Source: Anaerohalosphaeraceae bacterium (GTDB taxonomy: Bacteria; Planctomycetota; Phycisphaerae; Sedimentisphaerales; Anaerohalosphaeraceae). From it: a stretch of 64,000 nt of DNA. The stretch covers positions 33,665-97,664 of the forward strand of contig JBNRMN010000003.1 in the NCBI GenBank assembly GCA_050309605.1, read 5' to 3'. Made by a program: the position numbers and the translations under genes. Shown here in pieces: positions 1,133 to 62,597 of this stretch. How positions within the stretch are numbered: position 1 is the first letter of the stretch; every line of letters begins with the position of its first letter. The notes beneath the pieces are model-generated. The model was not told the origin of the DNA, made no database searches, and was given only the letters and a program-made list of their open reading frames with translations.

Positions 1133-3574
1133 ATGGCAGGACAGCGGCTTCGGGACTATCTGAAGGCGGGTAAATTTGCAGTTACAGCCGAGCTGACCAG
1201 CGGGCCGGGCTATCAGGTTGGACCGTTTGTTCAGTTCCTGAAGGACTGGCAAACATCGGACAAACAAATGCCGCAGGGGTTCCACTTTGCCGGCATCACA
1301 TTCCCCCAAAACCCCGGCGGCGCGGCCAATCTCGATCCGGCCGACGCCCTGGCGGTGATGGCCGCTGACGGACTGCTGGACGGCCTGGACTATATCCCCC
1401 ATATCAGCTGCAAAGACAGCAATACCGATGCGCTGATCAGTACACTGGTCGGCTACCGCACGCGCGGCATCGAAAGCGTGCTGGCCCTGACCGGCGATAA
1501 ACCGCTGACGGCCAAGGGCGTCTTCGAGGTCGAATCGGTCGGCCTGCTGGCGATGATTCAGAAACTCAATCGCGACGCGCTGCTCAAGGCCAAATCCGGC
1601 CAATGGGACGCCGTGCATCGCTTTTTTGCCGGGGCGGCGGTTTCGCCGTTCAAGTACACCGAGGCCTCGCTGATGCAGCAGTACTATAAAATGGAAAAAA
1701 AAATCGCCGCCGGAGCGCAGTTTCTTATTACCCAGGTCGGCTGGGACTGGAAAAAGTCCGTCGAGCTGATGCGCTACCTGAAGGACAACGCCATCGACAC
1801 CCCGGTCATCGGGAATGTCTATTGGCTGACCACCCGCACACCGGCGCCGCGGCTGATGCACGACATCAAGCTGCCCGGCTGTTACGTCAGCGACGCCCTG
1901 CTGGCTCGACTGCAATCCGAAAGCGTTGATGAGCACATTGAACGCGCCGCCCAGCAGACCGCCATGTACAAGGCCATCGGGGCCGCAGGCGTGGACATCG
2001 GCGGTGTTCACGACGTTGAGATTTTTATGCGCATCCTCAATCGAGCCGCCGAAATCGGCGATCAGTGGGAACAATACAAAGACAACCTCTGCTGGCCCGC
2101 TGAAAAGGCGTTCTATCTGTATGACGACAACGGCAAACAGACGGCGTTATCGGCGCCGAAGAAAAAATGCAACGAACGGTTCTTTAACCTCATGCACCGG
2201 GCGATTTTGGACCCGACGTATTGCGGTTTTCGGGCGTTTCGGGCAACGCTGCGGGCGTTTCGAGCCGACCGCGACGGCAGTTTCAGCAACAAGGCCTTTA
2301 ACGGGATCGAAAAACCGATCAAGTACTGGCTGTTCGAATGCGAAGAATGCGGCGATTGCTACTTGCCCGAAAACTTCAGCTATTGTACAATCGGCGGCTG
2401 TGAAAAAGGGCTGGACAATGCCCCGTGCGGCGATGCCACGGTTGACGGCCGGTGCGGCAATAACCTTGAACGGCTGTGTATCGGCGAAAAAATTTATGAT
2501 TCCGCCGCCGCTGAACCGAACGGGCGCCAGACACTGCGCCGGCAGATTAACCGCCCGCGCAAGCCGGAACTGGAACATACCAGTTCGATTATTAATTATC
2601 TGTTTGGAAAGGATCATACGATGACAACACCGCTGCTCGGCATCGGTGAGGCCATTCACGCCTCAATTCCGAAAACAGGACAGGTGATGCGCGAGCTGGA
2701 CGCCCTCGGCCCGGACGCCTATACCGCCTCCAGCGGTCCGCTGGATTATATCCGCGCCCTGATTGAACAGCAGGCCGACGACGGAGCCGCTTATATCGCC
2801 GTCAACCTGGACGCCTTCGGCGAGACCGATCCGCAGCGGGCGGTGAAGATGATGGTGCAGTACGCCCGTCTCGTACGCCGCTGGGGCAAAGGCGTGCCGC
2901 TGTGCGCAGACAGCAGCAACGACGATGTGCTCAAGGCCGGCCTGAAGGAATGGTACAATACCGATCAGGCCGTCAAGCCGCCGCTGTTGAACTCGATCAA
3001 GGTCTATACCGCCGATGCGATGATGCCGCTGAAAAAGGAATACGACTTTGCCTTCATCGGGCTGCTGGTCAGTGAAGACAAACCCACCGGCCCCGGCGGT
3101 TCGCATTCGGTTGAGGAATTGGTCAGTCTGGCCAAAACCCTGTTCGACAAGGCGATGCAGCACGGCTTTAAGCCTCACGAGATATTCTTTGACTCGACCG
3201 TCTTCCCGATCGCCATTGATATGCCGATGGAGCCGGGCGTGCCGGGGTACACCTATCGGGCGTTTGAAACCATCAAACGCATCAAGAATGATCCGCAGAT
3301 GAAAGATTGCCACTGTTCGCTGGGCATCAGCAACTGCTGCCGCGACCTGCCGGGACGCAAGATCGGCATCTGCCGTGCCTATGTCGCCAAGGCGATGGAA
3401 TACGGACTGGACGCCGGCATCGTCAACACCGCCCACCGCTACGGCGAAAAAGACCCCGACCCGGAACTGGTCAAGCTCATCGACGCCTATGCCAAACTGG
3501 ACGGCTCACCGGAACGACTCAACGAGGCGATGACGCTGATGGGCCAATTTTGCGCCGCGACGCGAAAAGCCTGA
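1133..3574 (+). CDS. metF: Methylenetetrahydrofolate reductase (MetF) fused to a Cys-rich MTHFR_C/MetV-like domain and a pterin-binding (AcsE/MetH-like) methyltransferase domain
   Basis: MetF motifs FAVTAEL, PHISCKD, LALTGD, KKIAAGAQFLITQ; 8-Cys CEECGDC...C...C...PC...C...C; C-terminal IGEAIHAS, LCADSS, LLNSI, FFDSTVFP, LGISN, GLDAGIVN. Confidence 0.85.
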   Translation: MAGQRLRDYLKAGKFAVTAELTSGPGYQVGPFVQFLKDWQTSDKQMPQGFHFAGITFPQNPGGAANLDPADALAVMAADGLLDGLDYIPHISCKDSNTDALISTLVGYRTRGIESVLALTGDKPLTAKGVFEVESVGLLAMIQKLNRDALLKAKSGQWDAVHRFFAGAAVSPFKYTEASLMQQYYKMEKKIAAGAQFLITQVGWDWKKSVELMRYLKDNAIDTPVIGNVYWLTTRTPAPRLMHDIKLPGCYVSDALLARLQSESVDEHIERAAQQTAMYKAIGAAGVDIGGVHDVEIFMRILNRAAEIGDQWEQYKDNLCWPAEKAFYLYDDNGKQTALSAPKKKCNERFFNLMHRAILDPTYCGFRAFRATLRAFRADRDGSFSNKAFNGIEKPIKYWLFECEECGDCYLPENFSYCTIGGCEKGLDNAPCGDATVDGRCGNNLERLCIGEKIYDSAAAEPNGRQTLRRQINRPRKPELEHTSSIINYLFGKDHTMTTPLLGIGEAIHASIPKTGQVMRELDALGPDAYTASSGPLDYIRALIEQQADDGAAYIAVNLDAFGETDPQRAVKMMVQYARLVRRWGKGVPLCADSSNDDVLKAGLKEWYNTDQAVKPPLLNSIKVYTADAMMPLKKEYDFAFIGLLVSEDKPTGPGGSHSVEELVSLAKTLFDKAMQHGFKPHEIFFDSTVFPIAIDMPMEPGVPGYTYRAFETIKRIKNDPQMKDCHCSLGISNCCRDLPGRKIGICRAYVAKAMEYGLDAGIVNTAHRYGEKDPDPELVKLIDAYAKLDGSPERLNEAMTLMGQFCAATRKA

Positions 3575-3621
3575 GACCGGGGTGAAGCCAGCCTTTCGGA
3601 ACGTTGGCCTCGCATTTACTT

Positions 3622-4275
3622 TTAAGACGGTTTGGCGTGTCGCCCAATCAGCCAGTCGCACCAGGTGTCAAACCCCTGTCCGGTTTCAGCAGAGACCTGC
3701 AAAATCGATGCATCAGGATTGACAGCCTGAATATCGGCCAGCACCCGCTCCAACCGAAACGGGATATAGTCCATCAGGTCAATCTTGTTGATGAGCACCA
3801 CATCCACTCCCGCAAACGTCCCGGGATATTTGGCGGGCTTGTCGTCGCCTTCCGGCACACTCAACAGCACCACCCGCCCCGATTCGCCCAGATCAAAGGC
3901 GGACGGACACACCAAATTTCCTACATTTTCGATAAAAATAATATCTTTTGAGGCCGCATCCATCGCTTTCAGGGCCGTGGCAACCTGCTCGGCGCTGAGA
4001 TGGCAGGCCCCCTGCGTTTCGATCTGAACCGCCTCAGCACCGGTTTCCCGAATCCGTTGGGCATCGTGATCGGTACGGATGTCGCCTTCGATCACCGCCA
4101 TGTGCAATCGATCGTGCAGCCGCCGGATGGTCCGGGCCAGCAGCGTCGTCTTGCCCGAACCGGGCGAGGAAATCACATTCAGACACAAAATGCCGTTTTC
4201 AGCAAAAAAGGCTCGATTTTTTTGGGCAAATTGGTCGTTTCGACTCAAAATCTTCTGATTCAATGAAACTTTCAT
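3622..4275 (-). CDS. hypB: Hydrogenase nickel incorporation GTPase HypB
   Basis: SSPGSGKTTLL, VIEGD, GACHL, IENVGNLVCP, EGDDKPAKYP, NKID. Confidence 0.93.
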   Translation of the reverse strand: MKVSLNQKILSRNDQFAQKNRAFFAENGILCLNVISSPGSGKTTLLARTIRRLHDRLHMAVIEGDIRTDHDAQRIRETGAEAVQIETQGACHLSAEQVATALKAMDAASKDIIFIENVGNLVCPSAFDLGESGRVVLLSVPEGDDKPAKYPGTFAGVDVVLINKIDLMDYIPFRLERVLADIQAVNPDASILQVSAETGQGFDTWCDWLIGRHAKPS

Positions 4276-30804: not shown

Positions 30805-32232
30805 TCACAATCCATACAAAATCGCCAGTTGTTCCACATTTCGGTCTTCTTTAATCACCGTTGCGACCGCCGAGACATGTGCGTTTCCGCTCTGACCGAC
30901 AACACGAATCAGGAAAAAATTGCTGGTTGTTGTCAGATAGTCTTTGGCACGTTCAATCGCGATGCTGTCGCCGTAAAACGCCTGTTTCAACTCATCAATG
31001 TTTTGAATCGGTTCTTCCTGGCGTTTGCGGATAATCTTTTCGGCCAACTCGGCCGGGTCGCCGCCGCCGAAGGTCAGTGCCGCTTCCAGCACATGCCGCG
31101 GGGCGGTATTGACATTGACCCGCTGCGACCCCCACAACGCCAGATACTTCAGCGGCGATTCATCCGGCAGCGCCGTATGTGCGGCGGGACGAGCCAGCGA
31201 CTGGCGATCCAGCAGGGCGCTGTGAAACAACTTGGCAAAATCCGCCGCATGGGCAACGGCCGGGCGCTGCGGAGCGGCCTGAGCCGATTGGGCCTGCTGT
31301 TGGGTCGGCCGTGCCCGCGCCGTGGTGCGCGTTGTGGTGAGGCGTCCTGCCGACTGAGTCCGAGCGGCGGCTGTACTGCGCTGCGGCTGCAAGAGAATGG
31401 CACTGGGGTTCAGCTCAAAGGTTTTATACTTATAAATCTCCTCGAGCTGTTCTGTCAGCATTTTTTGCTCAAGATCACTCATCCCCATCCAGTCGCAAAA
31501 AGTCGCCAGCACAGCCTCGGCCTGTTTGTTGACCGCCTCCCGATTGGTAATCGCCCAGGCCAGCGGCATTTTGGCGTTTTCATCTTCAATCGTAATGACC
31601 GCTCTGGCCGAACCAATGTGCAGCTCAATCGGTTCAATCACATACGGCCACGGCGGACCATACGGGCCGGGCACCTGAATATCATTCGGGTCGATTTCAA
31701 TAAACGTATCCCCCGAATCGATGTCAAAATCGGCCGTTTGCGCCTCATCGGCGGGCGGCCGATTGGGGTCGTCAAGCGACAAACCGAACATCTCCGCCAG
31801 TCGGCCGAGCATTTCCGTGCTGCTCAGCTCCGGGGGATTGTTCAGCGACGCATCGGGCTTGAGTACTTTTTCGAGCTGTTCCTCGGTGGCCGTTTCGGCC
31901 CAGTTCTGCAAAAAGATGCGATATTGCCGGTCGTTCATCACAAACAAATCCGAGAAATCCGGAAGATCCTGACGCTCCGACAGCCTGAATCTCTGACGCG
32001 GCAGGGTACTGAGCACGTATTTCATCGCCGAATCCAGCGCATAGCGTGCCCGCTGGTATTCGACCATATACGCCTGACGCCGTTTGACCATCGACACACG
32101 AACCGACAGCCCTGCCAGCAGCGACGAAAGCACCACCAGCGCCACCACCGCCACGACCAGCGCCATGCCGTCGGTGCGTCGAAACGTGCAACATCTTGTC
32201 AGTCCTTGTCGATTCATGGTCGCTCTGATCAT
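30805..32232 (-). CDS. gspK: T2SS minor pseudopilin GspK
   Basis: G/MALVVAV cleavage motif without Glu5; ITIEDENAK; VNVNTAPRHVL HhH-like motif. Start may be 32217. Confidence 0.85.
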   Translation of the reverse strand: MIRATMNRQGLTRCCTFRRTDGMALVVAVVALVVLSSLLAGLSVRVSMVKRRQAYMVEYQRARYALDSAMKYVLSTLPRQRFRLSERQDLPDFSDLFVMNDRQYRIFLQNWAETATEEQLEKVLKPDASLNNPPELSSTEMLGRLAEMFGLSLDDPNRPPADEAQTADFDIDSGDTFIEIDPNDIQVPGPYGPPWPYVIEPIELHIGSARAVITIEDENAKMPLAWAITNREAVNKQAEAVLATFCDWMGMSDLEQKMLTEQLEEIYKYKTFELNPSAILLQPQRSTAAARTQSAGRLTTTRTTARARPTQQQAQSAQAAPQRPAVAHAADFAKLFHSALLDRQSLARPAAHTALPDESPLKYLALWGSQRVNVNTAPRHVLEAALTFGGGDPAELAEKIIRKRQEEPIQNIDELKQAFYGDSIAIERAKDYLTTTSNFFLIRVVGQSGNAHVSAVATVIKEDRNVEQLAILYGL

Positions 32233-34031: not shown

Positions 34032-34633
34032 TAGAACGGCACCCGGTCGGCTGTCTGCGGCAGCAAAATCTCCGCATCGCCTTCGATCAACCGCACCGGC
34101 TTGCCGAGACGGTGGATCACAATCGACCACGGACGCCCGTCGCGATCGCGCAGCACTACTTTGCCGCCGAATTGCCAGCCGGCACGACCGGCGTAAAACC
34201 GCGCTTCAGTAAACGTCTCGCCGCGGTCGCGGGTATCTTCTAAATCATCATAGAGCACATAATCAAACTGAAACTCGTCGTCAAACCGACCGACCGTGAT
34301 TATCGCCTCATCATCCGGCAGCGTCTGAAAATCCAATGTCTCAAACTGCCGCAGGATATACACGTTGTTCAGTTGATCCAGAATCACCGCATACCGGCGG
34401 TCGCTCTGAAGGGCCGCCTCATAAGCCATCTGAAACGTATTGACCAGCGCCTCGGCACGGCTCTTGAAGCGCGTGTTGCCCCACATCGCGCCGAAGCCCA
34501 GCATCGCCACACCCGTCATCAGCCCAATCAAACCGACGACCATCAGCAGCTCGACCAGCACCATCGCCTTCAGCGACGGACGAAGCGACGAAGCAGAGTC
34601 TTTTTTCGTCAACCGACAATCGTCAATCGCCAA
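34031..34633 (-). CDS. T2SS minor pseudopilin GspH-like
   Basis: A/MVLVELLMVV motif; start uncertain (TTG 34633 or 34612). Confidence 0.7.
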   Translation of the reverse strand: MAIDDCRLTKKDSASSLRPSLKAMVLVELLMVVGLIGLMTGVAMLGFGAMWGNTRFKSRAEALVNTFQMAYEAALQSDRRYAVILDQLNNVYILRQFETLDFQTLPDDEAIITVGRFDDEFQFDYVLYDDLEDTRDRGETFTEARFYAGRAGWQFGGKVVLRDRDGRPWSIVIHRLGKPVRLIEGDAEILLPQTADRVPF

Positions 34634-34635
34634 TC
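34608..34635. repeat. Heptamer tandem array at the gspG/gspH junction
   Basis: GTCAACC GACAATC GTCAATC GCCAATC. Confidence 0.75.
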
Positions 34636-34637
34636 GC

Positions 34638-35072
34638 TTAGTCCACATCGGTGCTGTACAAGTCCGTGTCATAGCCTTCACCGCCCTCGCGACCGTCAGC
34701 GCCGTAACTGATAATCACGAACGGCTTGCCGCTTTCGGGATTGAGCTGATAGATAAACTCATTTTTCCAGGCGTCGCGCGGCACGGTCGTTGTTTCCAGA
34801 TAACCGCCCGGCGTCCAATAGTCCACATCCGCCGGCTGCTCAACCAGTTCGTACAATCCCATCTCTTCCGTCGGATAGCGACCGGTGTCGAGCTTGAACA
34901 TATTGACCGCCTGATGCAGCGTCTTGAGCGTCGCCTTGGTGGTGGTGACCTTGGCCTTTTCGGTCTGACCCATAAAATTCTTGGCCGCCACACCCGCCAG
35001 CAGGGCGATAATCAGCAGCACCGCCATCAGTTCCACCAGCGTAAACCCGCGATTCGTTTTGATCTGTCGCAT
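34638..35072 (-). CDS. gspG: T2SS major pseudopilin GspG
   Basis: G/FTLVELMAVLLII, FKLDTGRYPTEEMGL, DAWKNEF, SYGADGREGGEG. Confidence 0.95.
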   Translation of the reverse strand: MRQIKTNRGFTLVELMAVLLIIALLAGVAAKNFMGQTEKAKVTTTKATLKTLHQAVNMFKLDTGRYPTEEMGLYELVEQPADVDYWTPGGYLETTTVPRDAWKNEFIYQLNPESGKPFVIISYGADGREGGEGYDTDLYSTDVD

Positions 35073-35154: not shown

Positions 35155-36369
35155 TTAAAACTGAGTCACCGAATACTGGAACAGCGGCATCAGCGTCGCG
35201 TAGGCAATCGCCCCGATAATCAGCGCCATGAACACAATAATCACCGGCTCGACAATAGCACTGAGCCGCTCGATCACCAGATCCGACGACGCTTCCAGAT
35301 TCTCGCTGATCATTCTGAGCATCTGTTCCAGTTCGCCGCTCTTTTCGCCGACAGTCACCATATGCGAGATCGTCGGATCCAACACCCCGCTGTCGCGCAG
35401 CGGTGTGGCAATATCAGCTCCGGACAGAATCCGTTCACGAGCCTGCTTGATGGCATCGGCCATAATGACGTTGCCGGTCACCTGCGAAACCACACGCAGC
35501 GACTCGGCCATCGACAGCCCCGACCCCAGCAGCGTCGCCAGCGTCGAGGTAAACCGCGAAACGATCCGCTGTTTGAGCAGCGGGCCGAAACCGGGAAGAT
35601 TCAGCAGCAGTTTATCGCGCAGATAGGCCCCCCGCCGTGTCCGCACCAGCCGCTTATACAGCAGCACAAACCCGGCCAGGCCGGCCATAATCACGATCAC
35701 CCACCAACTGGTCAATACATTGGATACGCCCATCATAAATGTCGTCATCCACGGCAGCTCCTGTCCGGTACGGATTAACTGTTCGGTAATTTTGGGAATC
35801 ACCACGATCATAATCACCAGCAGCACCACCATACAGACGAACATCAGGATGATCGGATACATCATCACCGTCGTCATCTTGGCCTCCAACCGCTGGCGCT
35901 TGTCCATAAACGCCGCCATCGTTGACAGCGTTTCGGGCAGAGAACCGGTCACCTCGCCGACGCGGATCATACTGACATAGATCAAATCGAAAAACTGGTC
36001 ATACTCGTCCATCGAATCGGCCAGCGATTCGCCCGTTACCACCCGGTCGCGAATTTCCGTTACCGCCGCGCGAAGCTGCGGGTCAGAAACCTGCCCGATC
36101 AACACCGACAGCGCCTCGGTCAGCTTGATGCCCGAATTGAGCATCGTGGCCAGTTCCCGCGTAAAGCCGACCACCTGTTTGCGGCCGCTTTTGCGCATCA
36201 GGCTGCCCAGCGACTTGCGGGTCGTCTCCATCCGCACCTGATCTATCTGCGTCGGATGCAGCCCCCGCGCCCGCAGATGCTTGCGCGCAGCATAGGCGTT
36301 CTCGGCCGTTACCGTCCCTTTTTCGGTCTTTTTGGCGGCGTTGATCGCAATGTATTCAAATCGAGGCAT
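35155..36369 (-). CDS. gspF: T2SS inner-membrane platform protein GspF
   Basis: MPRFEY, FTRELATML, GEVTGSL, MYP, GEKSGEL, EPVII. Confidence 0.95.
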   Translation of the reverse strand: MPRFEYIAINAAKKTEKGTVTAENAYAARKHLRARGLHPTQIDQVRMETTRKSLGSLMRKSGRKQVVGFTRELATMLNSGIKLTEALSVLIGQVSDPQLRAAVTEIRDRVVTGESLADSMDEYDQFFDLIYVSMIRVGEVTGSLPETLSTMAAFMDKRQRLEAKMTTVMMYPIILMFVCMVVLLVIMIVVIPKITEQLIRTGQELPWMTTFMMGVSNVLTSWWVIVIMAGLAGFVLLYKRLVRTRRGAYLRDKLLLNLPGFGPLLKQRIVSRFTSTLATLLGSGLSMAESLRVVSQVTGNVIMADAIKQARERILSGADIATPLRDSGVLDPTISHMVTVGEKSGELEQMLRMISENLEASSDLVIERLSAIVEPVIIVFMALIIGAIAYATLMPLFQYSVTQF

Positions 36370-36373
36370 AATG

Positions 36374-36751
36374 TCATTGACGATGGACGATGGACGATGG
36401 ACAATTTTTTCTGGCGGTTTTTCGCGCGGTGATAAAAATCGCCGTCAGTTCATCGGCCTCCTGCATTAACGGTTCCACTTTCTGTTTCGGCAACATTTTT
36501 TCTTCAACAATGATTTCGAACCAAAACAGCGTTTCATCGACTTCTTCCACGACAATACTCAGTTTGGCAACAAATCCCGCCTTTGACTGAGCCAGACAGG
36601 CAGCTCGATAATTGGCCGCCACCGACGTTGACGATCGGATGATTTGCCCTCGGACATGCCGGCCCAGTAGAGTATCCGGCAGCGCATGGCTCATTTTTAT
36701 ACATCTTAAAGCGAATTGTTTGGTACGTCTTTTTAATTCGTGGCTATCCAC
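36374..36751 (-). CDS. Four-helix-bundle protein (23S_rRNA_IVP / TIGR02436-type)
   Basis: LKRRTKQFALR, QIIRSSTSVAANYRAA, FVAKLSIVVEEVDETLFW, EADELTAIF; GTG start with SD AAGGA. Confidence 0.92.
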   Translation of the reverse strand: MDSHELKRRTKQFALRCIKMSHALPDTLLGRHVRGQIIRSSTSVAANYRAACLAQSKAGFVAKLSIVVEEVDETLFWFEIIVEEKMLPKQKVEPLMQEADELTAIFITARKTARKNCPSSIVHRQ

Positions 36752-36790
36752 GTCATTTTCCTTTGTCCATCATCAATCGTCCATCGTCCA
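36377..36790. repeat. 28-bp inverted repeat of four heptamers bracketing the four-helix-bundle gene
   Basis: 36377-36404 TTGACGA TGGACGA TGGACGA TGGACAA versus 36763-36790 TTGTCCA TCATCAA TCGTCCA TCGTCCA; 25/28 complementary. Confidence 0.9.
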
Positions 36791-36792
36791 TC

Positions 36793-38496
36793 CTAAATGG
36801 TATCCGACTGCGTCACGCGCAGCACCTCGGCGATGGTCGTGATGCCGGCGGCCACTTTGCGGGCGCCGTCCATCCGCAGCGTCTGCATCCCCGCTTCCAG
36901 CGCCGCTTTCTTGATGGCGCCGGCGGTTTGCCGCTGATACACCATCTCACGAATCTCTTCGGTGATGGTCATCAGTTCATAGATGCCCGTCCGCCCGCGA
37001 TAGCCGGTGTCAAAGCACTTGGCGCAGCCGGCCCCGACGTAAAACATCGGCTTGTCGCCGGCGGTATCCAGCCCCAGCTCATGCAGCTCCTGCGGCGACG
37101 GCTCATAAGCCGTGCGGCAATCCGGACAAATCCGACGCACCAGACGCTGAGCCATCACCCCGATCAGCGACGAACTGACCAGATACGGCTCAATCTTAAA
37201 ATCAAGCAATCGGCTGATCGCCCCGGCCGCGTCGTTGGTGTGCAGTGTGCTGAACACCAGGTGTCCTGTCAGTGAAGACTGAATGGCCATCGCCGCCGTC
37301 TCGTGGTCGCGCACCTCGCCGACCATAATCACATCCGGATCCTGCCGCAGAATATGCCGCAGGGCGTTGACAAACGTCATCCCCTTCTTGAGCGAGACCT
37401 GCATCTGACTGATGCCGTTGAGCTGATACTCAATCGGATCTTCCACCGTCATAATATTCTTAACCGTCGAATCAAGCCGGTTCAGACAGGCATACAGCGT
37501 CGTGCTTTTGCCGCTGCCGGTCGGGCCGGTCACAAAGATCACCCCGTGCGAACGGTTGATCATTTTGTCAAAGGTTTGCTTGTCTTGCTCAAACAACCCC
37601 AGCTCCTCAAGCGTCAGGATGCCGCTGCTCTTATCAAGCAGACGCAGCACCGCCCGCTCGCCGAAGCTGGTCGGCACGGTACTGACGCGCAGGTCAATCT
37701 CGCGCTGGCCAATCCGCACGCTGCACCGTCCGTCCTGCGGCATCCGCCGCTCGGCGATATCCATCCCCGCCATCACCTTGATACGCGAAATCACCAGACT
37801 CAGCACATTGCGGTTCAGCGTCAGCGTGTCATACAAAATGCCGTCGATGCGGTAGCGCACCTGAATCTTGGTCTCGAACGGATGAATATGAATATCGCTG
37901 GCCCGCATTTGCAGCGCCCGAAACAGGATATCGTTGACCAGCCGAATGACCGGCGGACGATTGACCACATCGAGCAGGTCTTCGGAGCTTTGCACCTCAT
38001 CGACCAACTGGTCCAGATTCTGCGAATCCAGTTCCTCGGCCACTTCCTCGATGACGGTGTTTTTCTGCTCATAGGCCACATCAATCGCCGCGGTGATGGT
38101 CGCGCGGGTGCTCAGCGCCGTCTCGACGGGCAGGCCGAGCATCTTGGACACATTGTCAATCACCGACACATTCAGCGGATTGGCCGTAACGACCAGCAGC
38201 CGCCCGTTCTCCGCATCGGGGCGATAGCCGATCAGGTAATGATGCTGCGCATACGGCGCGGGAACCGATTCGACAAATTCCTGCGGTACATGCCCGGCGT
38301 CAATCTCGTCAAAAAACGAGATTCCCAGTGCCTCGGCAAACAGCCGAAGCACCACATCCTCGGTAAAGTTCGGCGCCGTCATCAACACCTGATCGATGCG
38401 CCGACCGTCGGAGGCATGCTGACTCAAAAAGTCCCGAAGCATCTCGGCGTTGACGACACCGCTTCGCTGGGCTGCCTGTATCAATAAGTCTTTCAT
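36793..38496 (-). CDS. gspE: T2SS ATPase GspE
   Basis: RASDIHI, DIAERRMPQDGR, GPTGSGKSTT, LRQDPDVIMVGEVRD, STLHTN, CPDC...CAKC. Confidence 0.97.
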   Translation of the reverse strand: MKDLLIQAAQRSGVVNAEMLRDFLSQHASDGRRIDQVLMTAPNFTEDVVLRLFAEALGISFFDEIDAGHVPQEFVESVPAPYAQHHYLIGYRPDAENGRLLVVTANPLNVSVIDNVSKMLGLPVETALSTRATITAAIDVAYEQKNTVIEEVAEELDSQNLDQLVDEVQSSEDLLDVVNRPPVIRLVNDILFRALQMRASDIHIHPFETKIQVRYRIDGILYDTLTLNRNVLSLVISRIKVMAGMDIAERRMPQDGRCSVRIGQREIDLRVSTVPTSFGERAVLRLLDKSSGILTLEELGLFEQDKQTFDKMINRSHGVIFVTGPTGSGKSTTLYACLNRLDSTVKNIMTVEDPIEYQLNGISQMQVSLKKGMTFVNALRHILRQDPDVIMVGEVRDHETAAMAIQSSLTGHLVFSTLHTNDAAGAISRLLDFKIEPYLVSSSLIGVMAQRLVRRICPDCRTAYEPSPQELHELGLDTAGDKPMFYVGAGCAKCFDTGYRGRTGIYELMTITEEIREMVYQRQTAGAIKKAALEAGMQTLRMDGARKVAAGITTIAEVLRVTQSDTI

Positions 38497-38656: not shown

Positions 38657-41600
38657 TCAATTACCATGCCTTAAAACACGTTCGGGACTCATTGGCTTTG
38701 GTTTGATTCCCGGCCAATCTTCATAGAGCTGCATCTCCGCTTCTCTATCTTCAAACTCTAACCGATATTGATTCGACAAGTTCTTCAAATCTTCACTGGT
38801 CAGATCTGTACCCGGACGCAGAATATTTGCTTTCACAAAGACATATAGTTTATTCTCCTGACTGGTATTTGATGTTGATCGGAACAAGCCGCCCAGAAGC
38901 GGCAAATCTCCCAGAATCGGCACCTTGGTGCCGCCCTTGCTCTGATTGATCTTGTCCATACCGCCGAGAATAATCGTATAACCGTCCGGTACGGTCACTA
39001 CGGTCGTCACATCACTTTCAGCGCGATCCGGCGGTTTTTGACTCGTTGTGTCAAAATTTATAAAATCTGAGCGATTCAGAATAATCTCGAGCCTTAAATT
39101 ATCTCCTTTACTGATACGCGGTGTAATATCCAGCTTGATACTGGCGTCATAAGGATCAAATTCGACTGTTTCTGTCTGAATAGGTTCACCGCTTTGCGTT
39201 TGCTGAATATTGGTCGTGCGCCGTGTCACATAGGTTGTTGACTTGGTCTCAATGGTTCCCTGTTCATTGTCATTCACCAATAACTTGGGATTGGCCATGA
39301 TACGACCATAACGCTTTCTTTCCATTGCCGTCAGCAAAGCCATCACCTTGTCATTACCGTAAAATCCGGTGAACTCGCCGCGATTGGCCTGCAGATCAAT
39401 GAATCGTGAACGATCACTGTCGGGGCTGAGTAATTTATCTAAAATATCGCCCTTTGTAATCACACTTTCACCGCTGCCTTGTATCGTTCCTGTCAATCCT
39501 GATGTGTTGGTTAAGTCAGGAATACTATTGAGAACATTAATCGCATAATTAAAATCATCGTCGCTGGTGATTTCCACCAATGTACAATCCAGCAGTACCT
39601 GCGGTCGATATTCGTCCAGCTCGCGAATCAGCTCACCGAGCCACTGCTGGTTGCGCTGATTGGCATAGACAATCAGCGAATAGGTCTTCGGATCAGGAAC
39701 AATCCGAATACGCTGTTCTTCACCGGACGGCAATATAGCCGCTTGACGCGAACGCGTCTGAATACGAGCATCCGGCTCTGATCGTGTTCCCTCGGCTGCT
39801 TCTTCGTAGGTTTCCTGGATCAGCCTATTTAATATCTCCGCAAGTTCGTCCGGCGCCTGATTTTCCAGCGCATAGACCATATACGGCGCAAACATCCGCT
39901 CGCGCTGGCGGTCGGCGTGGGCGATGACCATCGCGATGGCCGCATGCTGACGCGGCGTGGCGTGAATCAGCAGCGAGTTCGTCGCCGGCAGCACCGCAAT
40001 TTGCGGCTCGGCGGCGGTGATCTCGCGTTCCGTACCCTCCGGCGTCGGCAGCGCCATCGGCGGCGCCCCCTCCGCATCGGGCTGGGTCTGCCGCTGCTGC
40101 GTCGCTCGCCCGGTCGTGCCGCCTGCGGCGCGCGGGCCGTCCGTCGCGGCGGTTGAACGCGCCGAGATGATCCCCAAATCCGTCAGCGTATCCAGAATCA
40201 TCTGCGTATCGACATACTGAATCTCATACTCGCGAATCGTCCGCTGGTCTTTCTGCGTCACGTCCACATGGGAGATGACCAATTCAATCGCCTTGTGCTG
40301 CTCCTCGGTGGCGTTGACCAGCAGCGAATTGGTCGCCGCACGCAGCGAGATATACGGCTCATCGAGCGTGCCGGCGCCGGACACAGTCTGGGCCTGGCGG
40401 GCCTGAGCTGCCTGCTGTTGCTGCAGCGCCGCCTGCTGCTGGGGCGTCAACTGCTGTCCCGGCCGCACCGTCGGCGGACGGGCCGCGGTCGGCTGCGCGG
40501 TACTGACCGTGACCCGCGCCAGACCCAGCTCGTTGAGCACGGTAATCACTTCAGTCGCTTCCACATGCTGAATCACATATTCGCGAACAGTTCGTAAATC
40601 ATGGCTCGGTACATCCAGACTTTCAATCAACCGATTGACAATCTCCAGCTCCTCCGCATAACCGATCATCAGGACGCGATTGGTCCGTTCGTCCGCCTCC
40701 AAATAAACCGCGTCTTGATTCGTCGCCGTTTGAGCCTGCTGCTGGGCACGTGCCTGGGCCTGCTGACGCGCACGCTGTTCAGCGAGCTGACGCGCCCGTT
40801 CTGCGGCCGTCGTTGCCCGCGGCTGAGCGGTCGGCTGAGCCGCCGCCGGCTGGCCGGAAACGGTAATGCTGACGCCCTGAATCTCGCCGGCCAGCGCCTT
40901 GACCTTGGGCACAAGATCCGCCGCCGGCATATAACGAATCTGACGGAACTGAAAATCTTTCGGGGCGCCGGCCACATCAATCATCGCCAGCACGTCACGA
41001 ATGCGTTCCATCCGAAACGCATAATCCGTTACAATCAGCGTCCCGGTTTCCTTAATCGGAATAAAATCAGCCCCCAGCTTCATTTGCGTCAACATATTCC
41101 GCGCCGAATCGGCATCGATATGGTCTAACTCAAACACACTGCTGACCACCACATCCCCCGGCTGAATCGGCTCATTCGGCAGCCGCAGCACCGGATCCAC
41201 GTTGGCCACGTCCTGCGTGCGGGCAATCGTGACCAGCCGGTCCCGCCGGGTCATCACAAATCCGCGAAACCGCAGAACCGACTCAAGCAGCGAATATAGA
41301 TCCTTGATCCGAATCGTCCCGTCATGAACCTTGAGCATCACTTTCTGATTCCGCAGAATCGCCGGGTCATACATATAGTTCAGTCCGAGCTGCTTGCCCA
41401 CCAGTTCCACCAGGTCTTCGACTTCCACTTCTACGGGCAGAGTAATGGTCAATTCCAGCTCCTGCTCGGCTTTGTCTTCGGGCAGTTGCGTGCCGGTCAC
41501 GATACGATGATCGGCGGGCGTCGGCTCGGCAACGTCAGGCGTCGGCTCGTCCGCGGGCAACGCCGCTTGGTCCTCGTCCTGCGCCGGCGACTCAGCAGTC

Positions 41601-42547
41601 GGCTGTTGGGCCTGTTCGGACGTTTTCATCAGCATCTCCAGCACCGCAAGCAGGCCCTCATCAGACGCCTCGTCTTGGTCGGCTGACATCTGTTCCATCT
41701 GCCTGCGAATATCCTCAATCGCTTGCTGCTCCGGATCGACGGCCTCTTCCGGCTTGGGCTGCGGTTCGGATTCCGGCTCCGGCTCCGGTTCGACCGGCTC
41801 GGCAGGTTCCGCAGCGGTATGGTCCGGCGTTGCCGTGTCCGTTGTTTCTTCAGCGGCCGATTCAACCGCATCGGGCTCGGCGGGGATATCCGACGGCGGC
41901 TTCTCGTCGCCGAAAAGCTCAGCGGCGATCTCGGCCAGCGAGGGCCTCTTTTCCTCAATCGCCGCCTCGACCGTTTCGCTGTCTTTTGGATCGGGTTCGG
42001 AGGGGGCCGTTTTTTCCGTTTTCCACGTGTCAATAAAGGTTTCTATTTGGTCCAGCACATCAGCCGAGGCGATCCCCATCACCGTCCCTTCGAATAGATC
42101 GACTATCGCCGGATTGGGCGAACCCGAAGGCGGCGCATTGAGCAGCGTGCCGATGGTCAGGCTGCGCAGACGCACCGCAAGCTCTTCCTGCTTCGGCGCC
42201 GGCACCTGCTCGGTCGGAACCAGCAGCGGGCGAATCTCGACCGGCGATTCACTGTCGGCCAGGGTAACCACCGACGTGGCCTTGATCAAATCCTGCGTCC
42301 GATCGCTGGTCACGATAAGCACATCCGGCGAGAGTTGATTATACTCCGTGCCGAGGTTCAGCCGTTCGAGCATCGTCTGAACCGTGCGGCTGTCGTTGTG
42401 GCGAAGACGAAAGATGCGACTGCGCAGCGGACCGCGATCGGTTTGCGAATACGCAAAAAGGCACGCCAGCATTAACATCAGCAACCCCGGTCGAGTCATT
42501 TTGTTCATAACCTGACACCTGTTATTCTCTGAATTCTGATTTGTCAT
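38657..42547 (-). CDS. gspD: T2SS secretin GspD, very large (1296 aa)
   Basis: Several N-domains (DERTNRVL, ATNSLLV, ATNSLLI, KTYSLIV) and a secretin domain (PQVLLD, ANPKLLV, KVPILGDLPLLGGLFR). Confidence 0.92.
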   Translation of the reverse strand: MTNQNSENNRCQVMNKMTRPGLLMLMLACLFAYSQTDRGPLRSRIFRLRHNDSRTVQTMLERLNLGTEYNQLSPDVLIVTSDRTQDLIKATSVVTLADSESPVEIRPLLVPTEQVPAPKQEELAVRLRSLTIGTLLNAPPSGSPNPAIVDLFEGTVMGIASADVLDQIETFIDTWKTEKTAPSEPDPKDSETVEAAIEEKRPSLAEIAAELFGDEKPPSDIPAEPDAVESAAEETTDTATPDHTAAEPAEPVEPEPEPESEPQPKPEEAVDPEQQAIEDIRRQMEQMSADQDEASDEGLLAVLEMLMKTSEQAQQPTAESPAQDEDQAALPADEPTPDVAEPTPADHRIVTGTQLPEDKAEQELELTITLPVEVEVEDLVELVGKQLGLNYMYDPAILRNQKVMLKVHDGTIRIKDLYSLLESVLRFRGFVMTRRDRLVTIARTQDVANVDPVLRLPNEPIQPGDVVVSSVFELDHIDADSARNMLTQMKLGADFIPIKETGTLIVTDYAFRMERIRDVLAMIDVAGAPKDFQFRQIRYMPAADLVPKVKALAGEIQGVSITVSGQPAAAQPTAQPRATTAAERARQLAEQRARQQAQARAQQQAQTATNQDAVYLEADERTNRVLMIGYAEELEIVNRLIESLDVPSHDLRTVREYVIQHVEATEVITVLNELGLARVTVSTAQPTAARPPTVRPGQQLTPQQQAALQQQQAAQARQAQTVSGAGTLDEPYISLRAATNSLLVNATEEQHKAIELVISHVDVTQKDQRTIREYEIQYVDTQMILDTLTDLGIISARSTAATDGPRAAGGTTGRATQQRQTQPDAEGAPPMALPTPEGTEREITAAEPQIAVLPATNSLLIHATPRQHAAIAMVIAHADRQRERMFAPYMVYALENQAPDELAEILNRLIQETYEEAAEGTRSEPDARIQTRSRQAAILPSGEEQRIRIVPDPKTYSLIVYANQRNQQWLGELIRELDEYRPQVLLDCTLVEITSDDDFNYAINVLNSIPDLTNTSGLTGTIQGSGESVITKGDILDKLLSPDSDRSRFIDLQANRGEFTGFYGNDKVMALLTAMERKRYGRIMANPKLLVNDNEQGTIETKSTTYVTRRTTNIQQTQSGEPIQTETVEFDPYDASIKLDITPRISKGDNLRLEIILNRSDFINFDTTSQKPPDRAESDVTTVVTVPDGYTIILGGMDKINQSKGGTKVPILGDLPLLGGLFRSTSNTSQENKLYVFVKANILRPGTDLTSEDLKNLSNQYRLEFEDREAEMQLYEDWPGIKPKPMSPERVLRHGN

Positions 42548-61042: not shown

Positions 61043-61738
61043 TCATTTTTCCGACGTTTTTTCAACCATCCCTTTCTCTTCCATCGCCTTGAGCACCAGT
61101 GCTGCAATGTCGGCTTTCGAAAAAACCGCATTGTCAAACACAAGATGAAACGCCGGTTCGCGCGGATTTTGCTGGGCGTAAAAGGCCCGCAAATGCGCCC
61201 GTTCTTTTTCGATGCGATCCAGTTGGGCCGCCGCGGCCTGACGACTGATCGACTCCCGTTGACAAAGACGAGCGATGCGCCACTCTTTGGGCGCTTCCAC
61301 ACGCACACTCAACCCGTTGGCCACGTCCGCCGCGGCCGCGGCGCTGCCCTGACCAATAATGATGCTGTAACCGTCAAAGGCCAGGCCGCGAACCATTTTG
61401 GTCACATTATTGAGTATCTCAAGCCGATCCGGAACGCCGTTTTTTTTCAGTCCGCGAAGAAAATCCTTAAACAAACTGGGCCTGGAAGTTCGCTTTTTTT
61501 CCAGCAATTCAACATCCACCCCCGTATCCTCGGCAAGCCGAGCGAGCAATTCCTTATACCACACGCGCCAGCGTCGCTGTTCATCCCGCTCATTGAGCCG
61601 GTCGGCCAGTGCCATGCCCAGCTCATACCCATCACAACCGTACTGCCGGGAAATCGTCAGATAAGGACCGGGGGCTTTCTTTTTCCGTTCGGTATCAAGA
61701 TGCTCCCGAAGATAAGACGATAGGGTCGGTTTTGTCAT
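61043..61738 (-). CDS. Cytidylate kinase-like family protein
   Basis: LTISRQYGCDG, IIIGQGS, VRVEAP..WRI, FHLVFD. Confidence 0.85.
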   Translation of the reverse strand: MTKPTLSSYLREHLDTERKKKAPGPYLTISRQYGCDGYELGMALADRLNERDEQRRWRVWYKELLARLAEDTGVDVELLEKKRTSRPSLFKDFLRGLKKNGVPDRLEILNNVTKMVRGLAFDGYSIIIGQGSAAAAADVANGLSVRVEAPKEWRIARLCQRESISRQAAAAQLDRIEKERAHLRAFYAQQNPREPAFHLVFDNAVFSKADIAALVLKAMEEKGMVEKTSEK

Positions 61739-61880
61739 AAACGCATCCTTACACCAGAATTTCACCAGCCGGTCACCGAAAGGTTCTGATACCTACTGCC
61801 TGATTTCGATAGACCGTAACCGCAATCAGGTTGGTTGTCAACTATTTCTCGGCGATTTTCGCCCAGGCCAGGCCGGCTTC

Positions 61881-62597
61881 TCAGCGTGCCGCCGCCAATG
61901 CCGCTGCCAGCGTGATGGAACCTTCATAAAGGGCACGTCCGATAATTGCCCCGGCCGCACCGATGGATTTGAGATAGGTGATATCTTCTACTGTGGTCAC
62001 GCCGCCGGCGGCCACGACGGGTGTACCCACGGCCTTGACAAGCCGAGCTGTCCGCTCCAGATTCGGCCCGGCCAGCATCCCGTCTTTGCTGATGTCTGTA
62101 TAAACGATCGCCGCTATCGGCACATCCGCTGCCCGTTTGGCAAATTCAAAAAGATCCAGCCCCCCCTCTTCCAGCCAGCCCTCGGTGGCCAGATTCGCCC
62201 CGCGAGCGTCCAGACCCAGCACCAGCCGACGGGGATACCGTTCGGCCATCCGGCAGAACCAGTCGAATTGTTTGACCGCGCTGCTGCCCAGAATCAGCCG
62301 CCTTACCCCCGCCTCAAGCATCGCGGCAATCGCCGCTTCGTTGCGAATCCCGCCGCCCAGCTCAATGTTCAATTCCGGATATTGCCGCGCGATGGCCGCG
62401 ACCGCCGGTGTATTGACCGGACGACCCGATTTGGCCCCGTCCAGATCGACCACATGCAGCCATGTCGCCCCGGCGGACACGAATTCGCCGGCCTGCGCTG
62501 CTGGATCGTCCCGGTAGGTAATCTGCTTGTCATATTGACCCTGCAAAAGCCGCACACACTTTCCATCAATCAAATCGATCGCCGGCAATATATCCAT
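61881..62597 (-). CDS. hisA: ProFAR isomerase HisA
   Basis: ILPAIDLIDGKCVRL, HVVDLDGA, GGGIR, TDISKDG, AAGGV, GRALY. Confidence 0.97.
   Translation of the reverse strand: MDILPAIDLIDGKCVRLLQGQYDKQITYRDDPAAQAGEFVSAGATWLHVVDLDGAKSGRPVNTPAVAAIARQYPELNIELGGGIRNEAAIAAMLEAGVRRLILGSSAVKQFDWFCRMAERYPRRLVLGLDARGANLATEGWLEEGGLDLFEFAKRAADVPIAAIVYTDISKDGMLAGPNLERTARLVKAVGTPVVAAGGVTTVEDITYLKSIGAAGAIIGRALYEGSITLAAALAAAR

Follow-up and report, generated by a model that had tools for sequence, protein, structure and literature searches.

A small gene enclosed by inverted heptamer arrays between gspE and gspF

The window analysed here, a stretch of 64,000 nucleotides from an Anaerohalosphaeraceae bacterium (Planctomycetota; contig JBNRMN010000003.1; its genome is labelled G000 below), contains a type II secretion system (T2SS) operon in which a small gene lies between gspE and gspF, the genes of the ATPase and of the platform protein. 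An earlier note, made from the letters of this DNA alone, had recognised there a 125-aa four-helix-bundle gene packaged in an inverted repeat of heptamers, and had proposed that gene and repeat together form a self-contained cassette, which would be an intervening sequence of the mRNA or else a small unit that moves with no transposase of its own. The gene was confirmed as a member of family PF05635; like every other gene of the region, several pseudopilin-like and T2SSK-like ones among them, it is located on the minus strand (Table 1).

In mRNA sense, the stop codon of gspE (UAG) is followed by GA, by the four heptamers of the 5' arm, by the purine-rich AGGAAAAUGAC and by a GTG start codon, which is backed by the alignment with orthologues starting MDxxELK. 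AGGAAAAUGAC is located in the loop, at the base of the stem, and is likely the ribosome-binding site of the cassette open reading frame (ORF). The ORF ends with the four heptamers of the 3' arm and a UGA codon placed 4 nt before the gspF AUG, and both heptamer strings read as had been claimed. By repeat search, the two arms (36376-36404/36763-36791) are 29 nt long each, 90% complementary and 358 nt apart, in agreement with the announced loop of about 360 nt holding nearly the whole ORF. Counted by hand over 28 nt, they form 25 Watson-Crick pairs and one G-U pair, as the earlier note had it, with 2 mismatches. The distance from the gspE stop to the gspF start is 423 nt. The loop is filled by the ORF, and neither a transposase nor a reverse transcriptase gene is present inside; a terminator scan returned no sense-strand terminator-like site within the cassette.

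The arms reached a gapped inverted-repeat score of 57, against a mean of 27.1 (sd 3.4, max 37) for shuffled sequences, and an ungapped z-score of 19.4. A chance origin of this inverted repeat is excluded. RNA folding of positions 36360-36800, which the earlier note had suggested, gave minimum free energy and centroid structures that both pair the two arms and close the element.

The protein exceeded the family cut-offs of both PF05635 (51.9 bits, cut-off 33.8, E 1e-13) and TIGR02436 'four helix bundle protein' (76.1 bits, cut-off 24), and matched the solved Bacteroides protein PDB 2RLD with E 4.6e-15. An AlphaFold (AF2) model built from 16 relatives (predicted local distance difference test, pLDDT, 92.5) places helices at residues 5-21, 28-52, 57-83 and 89-115. 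Residues 116-125, the roughly 10 that are encoded by the 3' arm, have low pLDDT and no helix, and are predicted to be a disordered tail. Foldseek returned 2RLD first (TM 0.79/0.90), then Xcc0516 (2GSC, TM 0.77-0.81), then Avd (4DWL, TM 0.72/0.81) together with ribonucleoprotein entries of diversity-generating retroelements (DGR), including 8UBE. By this model, the protein is an up-down four-helix bundle like 2RLD and 2GSC. PDB 2RLD has five chains, and PMC4990558 and PMC10053308 cite Xcc0516 as a homopentamer of four-helix bundles (here and below, statements on published work refer to the portions of these papers that were available). In the alignment, conserved polar residues run along the helices: Q36, R39, T42/S43, N47 and E69/70/73. 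The earlier note's background on this family, namely its discovery in intervening sequences (IVS) of 23S rRNA, its resemblance to Avd and its lack of a known function, was borne out by Foldseek and by the available text of PMC4990558 and PMC10053308.

Table 1. Features of the T2SS region, with positions in the window
Feature	Position	Strand	Basis or remark
Secretin gene (long)	38657-42547	-	ORF list/Pfam
gspE, T2SS ATPase, host gene upstream	36793-38496	-	Pfam T2SSE, E 1.1e-137; stop codon 36793-36795
5' arm, four heptamers: UGGACGA twice, UUGAUGA, UGGACAA; G-rich	36763-36791	-	Repeat search; first base 1 nt past gspE stop
Purine-rich AGGAAAAUGAC, likely ribosome-binding site of the cassette ORF	36752-36762	-	Sequence between 5' arm and GTG start
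125-aa four-helix-bundle protein (PF05635/TIGR02436; S23p/'23S rRNA IVS protein' family)	36374-36751	-	Pfam, NCBIfam, model
3' arm: UUGUCCA, UCGUCCA twice, UCGUCAA; C-rich	36376-36404	-	Repeat search; ends 6 nt before gspF ATG
gspF, T2SS platform protein, host gene downstream	35155-36369	-	Pfam T2SSF, E 1.4e-53
gspG	34638-35072	-	Pfam T2SSG
Solo G-rich array: GCGAUUG twice, ACGAUUG, UCGGUUG	34607-34637	-	Directly behind gspG stop; no complementary partner found
T2SSK-like gene	30805-32232	-	Pfam T2SSK match
Solo G-rich array: UCAGAAA, UCAGAAG, ACAGAAG twice, UCGGAAG, UCGGAAA	30758-30800	-	Few nt past stop of T2SSK-like gene

Heptamer arrays around PF05635 genes in G000 and in other phyla

G000 holds seven PF05635 matches, and the flanks of all of them were inspected, as had been proposed for the paralogues. 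A period-7 array upstream and its reverse complement downstream were found at 7/7, the unit being different for each; the inverted repeat was clearly above shuffles in five of the seven, and weak or decayed in the other two. We extended this comparison to two sets of loci. A locus was counted as passing when its inverted-repeat score was at least 14, the controls being the same windows displaced by 800 nt rather than matched small genes. The first set (n=46) comprised the 7 genes from G000, 9 others at gspE|gspF junctions and the 30 best matches from 30 genomes of the phylum. In this set, 42/46 cassettes passed, against 1/46 and 2/44 of the displaced controls, with a best period of 7 in 38 cassettes, 8 in four and 9 in two. 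For the second set, one genome per species was scanned, and the loci obtained belong to Acidobacteriota, Clostridia, Bacteroidota, Planctomycetota, Verrucomicrobiota, Chloroflexota, Desulfobacterota, a candidate-phylum bacterium and others; 79 of the 80 loci returned were used, L114 being omitted for lying near a contig end. Here 56/79 loci passed, against 4/77 and 1/75 displaced controls, and the period was 7 in 52 of the 56. The sampled loci include mutual relatives, several of them orthologous, so that kin are not independent; the contrast with the controls is still large. Altogether, these comparisons indicate that the inverted-heptamer layout is general for PF05635 genes and not a local oddity.

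When the cassettes were pooled, a good stem was present in 101/125, with a median stem of 32 nt and arms that typically consist of 4-5 units. Among these 101, the nearest upstream gene within 300 nt was co-oriented with the cassette in 81 cases, opposite in 8 and absent in 12, the flanking genes being crude ORF calls. The 5' arm begins at a median of 3 nt past the stop of the upstream gene, and the 3' arm ends at a median of 13 nt before the start of a co-oriented downstream gene (n=61). The arms also differ in composition: among 100 stems, G outnumbers C in the 5' arm of 86 and C outnumbers G in that of 14, the 3' arm having the opposite composition. Two causes of this polarity were considered and set aside. 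Stop codons do not account for it, as stops in all three frames were found in 31 of the 5' arms and in 20 of the 3' arms, and neither does a coding need, since, of the 86 cassettes checked, 50 have their ORF stop ahead of the 3' arm, 35 have it within that arm and 1 has it beyond.

PF05635 is carried by 80/151 genomes of the phylum sample, with up to 18 copies per genome. Paralogues within one genome have a median identity of 32-34% and private arms, 7-mers being shared in only 7/45 and 4/45 pairs. At one place in G000 (C33:73334-76322; L003, L004 and L006), three cassettes, each with its own heptamer unit, occupy all junctions of leuA-leuC-leuD-leuB.

Filled, empty and decayed junctions

For the search for empty alleles that the earlier note had called for, the gspF orthologue was taken from 30 genomes belonging to the same genus, family or order, and both gene ends were present in 29. 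A cassette was found at 10 of these gspE|gspF junctions (spacer 423-520 nt), 8 were empty (8-19 nt) and 11 were intermediate (43-357 nt). The short spacers of the empty junctions agree with the statement that gspE and gspF are commonly adjacent. Five of the intermediate junctions (L014, L022, L026, L028 and L030) contain a period-7 array or a long hairpin and no ORF. The ten cassettes belong to one protein subfamily, with 53-84% identity to the window protein, and each has its own heptamer unit. Between orthologous cassettes, the unit family is common to both arms, not position by position, and copy numbers differ. In G002, a member of the same genus, gspF is 93-97% identical, whereas the cassette protein is only 56-57% identical to that of the window and the arms are different. 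A gene stably syntenic in relatives and free of repeats, the picture that would have spoken against a cassette, was not what these junctions displayed. With 10/29 of them filled, 8/29 empty and a copy at a second locus (see below), the comparison indicates that the gene is a facultative insert and not a conserved component of the T2SS operon. Separately, sequencing runs that contain this DNA were inspected: none of those listed is recorded as RNA, the four examined consist of contigs, and the two labelled 'TRANSCRIPTOMIC' are flagged as probably DNA. A metagenome DNA contig of run X11, about 90% alike, joins the start of gspF (36360) to the end of gspE (36790) and skips 429 nt, its shorter side being 26 letters long. 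This joint may represent an allele that is empty or replaced in a relative, and the contig was not counted as evidence.

The second locus was found in G003 and G006, two congeners of G000, where a cassette with TGGACGA-type arms lies between two permease genes and encodes a protein 85% and 79% identical, respectively, to that of the window. G006 holds both the permease-junction and the gspE|gspF copies, and in G000 the permease junction is empty, with a 26-nt spacer. The window and the permease cassette of G003 are 80.7% identical at the nucleotide level over 424 nt, and the flanks beyond do not match: the similarity starts 5 nt before the end of the gspE stop codon and stops 7 nt short of the gspF ATG. 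Another lineage, with AAAAGGN arms, is found at leuD|leuB in G000, G003 and G006 and at a different junction in G005, where G000 has a 10-nt spacer. In G052, two cassettes encode proteins 94% identical and have DNA 88% identical over 452 nt, with a similarity that sets in precisely where the array begins, the stop codons in front of the two being unrelated. More widely, PF05635 cassettes are found in many surroundings, leu, opp and ffs|dnaX among them. The proposal of a self-contained mobile unit without a transposase held up: inverted arrays accompany every paralogue, the junction is empty in relatives, a same-armed copy whose similarity comprises just the arms and the ORF lies at a second locus that is empty in G000, and the cassette contains neither a transposase nor a reverse transcriptase gene. 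We conclude that the cassette behaves as one discrete unit, which is gained or lost and is copied, arms included, to other junctions.

Two observations made on the way are recorded here. At leuD|leuB of G003 (L181, C20 ~3270-3650), the 5' arm and the first cassette codons are directly duplicated around an extra small ORF, membrane-spanning by look; a normal four-helix-bundle ORF follows the duplication, in a tandem, cassette-array-like arrangement. G000 also has two Y1_Tnp (HUH) genes (C63:13043-13384 and C90:77804-78064), flanked by GC-rich palindromes resembling repetitive extragenic palindromes (REP), as in REP-associated tyrosine transposases (RAYT), and one of the two is closely followed, the other closely preceded, by an ordinary solo heptamer array. 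As a candidate for the moving enzyme, HUH/Y1 was rejected: the Y1 genes of G000 bear their own GC-rich palindromes, not heptamer hairpins, and no link to the cassettes was found.

Cassettes were also observed in various states of decay. In G000, 3/7 cassette ORFs are damaged, by an in-frame TGA, a missing N-terminus or a truncation. Between ffs (the signal recognition particle RNA gene) and dnaX, a cassette is present in G003, G006, G012, G033 and G027, and G000 has an ORF-less hairpin made of two heptamer arrays with a 14-nt loop. Between leuC and leuD, cassettes are found in G000 and G006 and a bare hairpin in G003; at another junction, G003 has a cassette where G000 has only a remnant of the 3' arm. 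These pairs of junctions indicate that related cassettes decay to ORF-less heptamer hairpins. A search with hidden Markov models through the six-frame translation of G000 and through six long gspE|gspF spacers returned only the seven known copies and no further decayed ones. An ORF-less TGGACGA hairpin with a loop of about 19 nt was seen elsewhere in G000 (C63:61171-61228), directly behind the stop of a gene at 61230-62429 (-); in its letters, it looks like a miniature derivative of the window's cassette lineage.

Heptamers are not confined to cassettes. Tandem arrays of at least 3 units are present in G000 at 65 places with period 7, compared with 2 with period 8, 2 with period 10 and 0 with period 11, and most of the period-7 arrays are solo and located within a few bases of ORF ends. 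Two such solo arrays lie in the window itself, behind gspG and behind the T2SSK-like gene (Table 1). Together with the cassette, three T2SS operon junctions therefore carry heptamer arrays, the full cassette being present only at gspE|gspF. Given the comparisons of filled junctions with hairpins and remnants, some solo arrays and hairpins are demonstrably cassette relics; this holds for some and is not claimed for most. Single-linkage grouping of the 65 arrays by unit gave one chain and no families, and no statistical claim of unit matches is made.

Comparison with known elements and proposed mode of action

The element resembles the IVS of 23S rRNA genes in several respects. In Coxiella burnetii, the 23S IVS, located in helix 45, is 428-444 nt long and has a 28-bp terminal stem; three to four tandem GACAGAT heptamers, in strain-variable copy number, are found just before the S23p ORF, and RNase III cleaves in mid-stem in vitro (PMC4990558). 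ORF-bearing 23S IVS also occur in Leptospira, Brucella and Haemophilus, as cited in the same paper. The cassette shares with these elements the S23p/PF05635 family, the size class (428-444 vs 423 nt), a 28-bp stem enclosing an ORF, the heptamers and the decay of the ORF. In contrast to them, the cassette of the window lies between protein-coding genes of an operon and not in an rRNA helix, and RNase III cleavage is demonstrated for the rRNA element only. The heptamers are treated in the available text of PMC4990558 as a local trait of one species and not as a general boundary of the family. When the 23S gene of G000 was compared by blastn with the other 147 loci, no match was obtained; no sampled locus lying in a 23S gene, the comparison with the rRNA IVS therefore rests on PMC4990558.

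The 23S rRNA gene of G000 (C1:63548-66367) is itself about 360 nt overlong across positions 15-2044 of the Rfam model. Its insert (L148:1769-2073) has a 22-nt inverted repeat of 95% with 261 nt between the arms, which encloses the start of a 118-aa ORF outside PF05635. The N-terminus of this ORF is GIY-YIG-like by eye, and its NCBIfam match to 'group I intron endonuclease' is below threshold (17 bits vs 56). Further on lies a second hairpin (L148:2373-2475), whose loop measures 57 nt. The rRNA intervening sequence of G000 thus has a different cargo and arms that are not heptameric.

Other small elements share part of these traits. The Correia repeat enclosed elements (CREE, or NEMIS, Neisseria miniature insertion sequences) form RNA hairpins that are bound by RNase III and cleaved or protected, altering the expression of neighbouring genes (PMC2649163). 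Like the cassette, they are small, have inverted-repeat ends and no transposase, and lie next to or between genes; CREE are co-transcribed. They differ in being ORF-less and in having many near-identical copies with one conserved terminal repeat, whereas each cassette lineage has its own heptamer unit and one or two copies per genome. CREE make a TA target duplication, and none was seen for the cassettes. Compared with miniature inverted-repeat transposable elements, the cassette has terminal inverted repeats, no transposase and a presence/absence polymorphism, and lacks a visible target duplication and near-identical copies. The likeness to the REP/RAYT arrangement (REPIN) consists in a single small gene flanked by inverted short repeats, with similar repeats scattered behind gene ends; however, RAYT is an HUH/Y1 transposase and the cassette protein is a four-helix bundle without such a motif. 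PF05635 is also the commonest Pfam family beside DGR reverse transcriptases (PMC10053308), and the cassette protein is homologous to the four-helix bundle Avd (4DWL and the DGR entries found by Foldseek). Unlike Avd, its neighbours are gspE and gspF, the gene stands alone in its hairpin, and G000 has no reverse transcriptase and no template/variable repeat pair. With 0 matches to RVT_1 in G000, an assembly that is 99.73% complete, the window copy is therefore not part of a DGR.

Heptamer repeats themselves have been described. Period-7 arrays are overrepresented in intergenic DNA near gene ends as the short tandemly repeated repetitive sequences (STRR) of cyanobacteria (Nostoc), GGGAATC in Xanthomonas and TAACTGA in Beggiatoaceae, and the Xanthomonas arrays are often paired in inverted orientation, in 70-75 pairs (PMC4692102, PMC4679880). 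The heptamer excess of G000 resembles these. In the repeats of those papers one unit dominates per genome, whereas in G000 the units vary by locus and the array pairs enclose a gene. The words 'four helix', 'S23' and 'intervening' have 0 occurrences each in the available text of PMC4679880 and PMC4692102, which makes no link to PF05635 genes.

Taken jointly, these data are probably best read as an IVS-type cassette that is devoid of promoter and transposase, co-transcribed with its operon and cut by RNase III. Read-through from the T2SS operon would transcribe the cassette, and its arms would form in the RNA a 28-bp stem that loops out about 360 nt and brings the gspE stop beside the gspF start. 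Host RNase III would cut this stem, as in the Coxiella IVS; it is on the analogy with that cleavage that the other alternative of the earlier note, an mRNA intervening sequence, rests. The cut would free a monocistronic RNA for the four-helix-bundle protein, clamped by its half-stem, and would split the operon transcript into a gspD-E part and a part from gspF onward. The element would persist since the arrangement would cost the operon little. Movement of the DNA copy would need an enzyme acting in trans or a replication or repair event mediated by the hairpin. Size, stem, heptamers and protein family are like those of Coxiella, RNase III is encoded in G000, the cassette is co-oriented with gspE and no terminator was found, and together these make the reading in which RNase III cuts the stem the most likely one. 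Moreover, the base of the stem would keep the gap between the gspE stop and the gspF start about as narrow as it is in empty alleles, and the ORF ends 4 nt before the gspF ATG, which may explain why the insert is tolerated.

Several observations weigh against this reading. The mismatches in the 101 stems comprise 183 G-U and 162 A-C pairs, where composition predicts about 1.05:1; without an excess of G-U, the stems bear no mark of long-term selection on an RNA helix. Nor do the arms of orthologous cassettes compensate each other position by position, and complementarity is thus probably renewed at the DNA level, by concerted evolution of the arrays or by a copying mechanism rather than by selection on the helix. 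Among the 65 arrays of G000, only a handful had clear inverted partners; most being solo, arrays behind stop codons therefore exist without any stem. No enzyme for the movement was identified in G000, where there is no RVT_1 match and no link between the Y1 genes and the cassettes was found. Target-site duplication was not visible at three filled/empty comparisons, at sites about 20% diverged where a short one could be hidden. Finally, the excised IVS RNA of Coxiella is labile and its S23p ORF is decaying and probably untranslated (PMC4990558); as S23p is probably not made there, a benefit from the protein is not established.

Part of these points would be expected of a purely selfish element acting at the DNA level, whose arrays would be terminal repeats, or a single-stranded DNA hairpin, used by a trans-acting enzyme (for example HUH/Y1) or by replication slippage, the RNA stem being a by-product and the ORF a passenger. 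Cassettes move with their arms, the stems have no G-U excess, the arms evolve in concert by unit and not by compensatory pairs, the ORFs decay while the arms persist (the three damaged ORFs of G000 and the ORF-less hairpins), and two Y1_Tnp proteins are encoded in G000. Such an element would not require, however, the strand-specific placement that was observed, with 81 vs 8 co-oriented upstream genes and a G-rich 5' arm in 86 stems vs 14. The REP-like palindromes of the Y1 genes and the three comparisons devoid of a target-site duplication count against it as well, and a transcribed 28-bp duplex is a plausible substrate of RNase III whatever its origin. We regard a purely DNA-level element as unlikely. 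The other end of the range, an ordinary T2SS accessory gene inherited vertically and flanked by repeats that local slippage produced, could draw on the fact that the ten junction cassettes form one subfamily (53-84% identity), and part of the distribution could so be old and vertical. Yet the junction is empty in 8/29 relatives, the cassette protein of G002 (56-57%) is far less conserved than its gspF (93-97%), a same-armed cassette is found in an unrelated operon of congeners, and the family has members in numerous further contexts such as leu, opp and ffs|dnaX. Filled and empty junctions, as well as the copies at a second locus, already contradict this explanation, and we find it hardly credible.

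A role of the protein on its own arms was also weighed. In a self-recognising module, a pentameric ring would bind, in a TRAP-like manner and on single-stranded RNA or DNA, the 4-5 heptamers that make up its own arms, and would control the stem, its own translation and the coupling of gspE and gspF; it might also act on solo arrays. Relatives of the protein are five-chain assemblies (2RLD and, in the papers cited above, the homopentamer Xcc0516), the homologue Avd is part of a DGR ribonucleoprotein (4DWL, 8UBE), arms typically have 4-5 units with a median stem of 32 nt, each paralogue of a genome has its private unit, and conserved polar residues line the helices. On the other hand, a match between unit and protein is expected from descent alone, and units are common only to close relatives (at least 79% identity). 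In addition, the two kinds of solo array that are commonest in G000, GAATTCN-like and GTCAGAG-like, look similar to the arms that flank damaged cassette ORFs (C96 and C67), with the proviso that clustering could not confirm these kinds as families. Self-recognition is, in our judgement, quite improbable.

PF05635 genes outside rRNA are annotated by the thousand. In the literature searched, which did not cover subscription journals, we found no description of inverted heptamer arrays as a general boundary of PF05635 genes outside rRNA, and the placement behind stop codons and the filled, empty and scarred alleles were likewise undescribed there. Compared with the literature searched, an IVS-type cassette that lives in operons, with inverted heptamer arrays as its general boundary, appears to be new. 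A broader idea can be offered tentatively, and we hold it to be rather doubtful as a whole: PF05635 genes with inverted heptamer arrays would constitute a widespread, undescribed class of non-autonomous cassettes, which would home to the bases immediately behind stop codons or RNA-gene terminators, spread among operon junctions and rRNA helices and decay to hairpins and solo arrays. They would be a main source of the intergenic heptamer excess (STRR, GGGAATC, TAACTGA), for which an explanation has long been missing, and an Avd-like pentamer would read their 4-5 heptamers, as a factor of the element itself that handles nucleic acids. If this were true, the classical 23S IVS would be only the most visible landing site of these cassettes.

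The S23p/IVS family is very large and occurs in many phyla, and no function has come to light since its discovery in rRNA intervening sequences. The traits of the cassette make this family tractable, as they provide a defined cis element, a candidate nuclease in RNase III and a candidate ligand for the protein. They also point to a source of at least part of the intergenic heptamer repeats. In annotation work, they mean that inserts of about 420 nt in operons such as gsp, leu and opp are to be taken as accessory and not as parts of the pathway.

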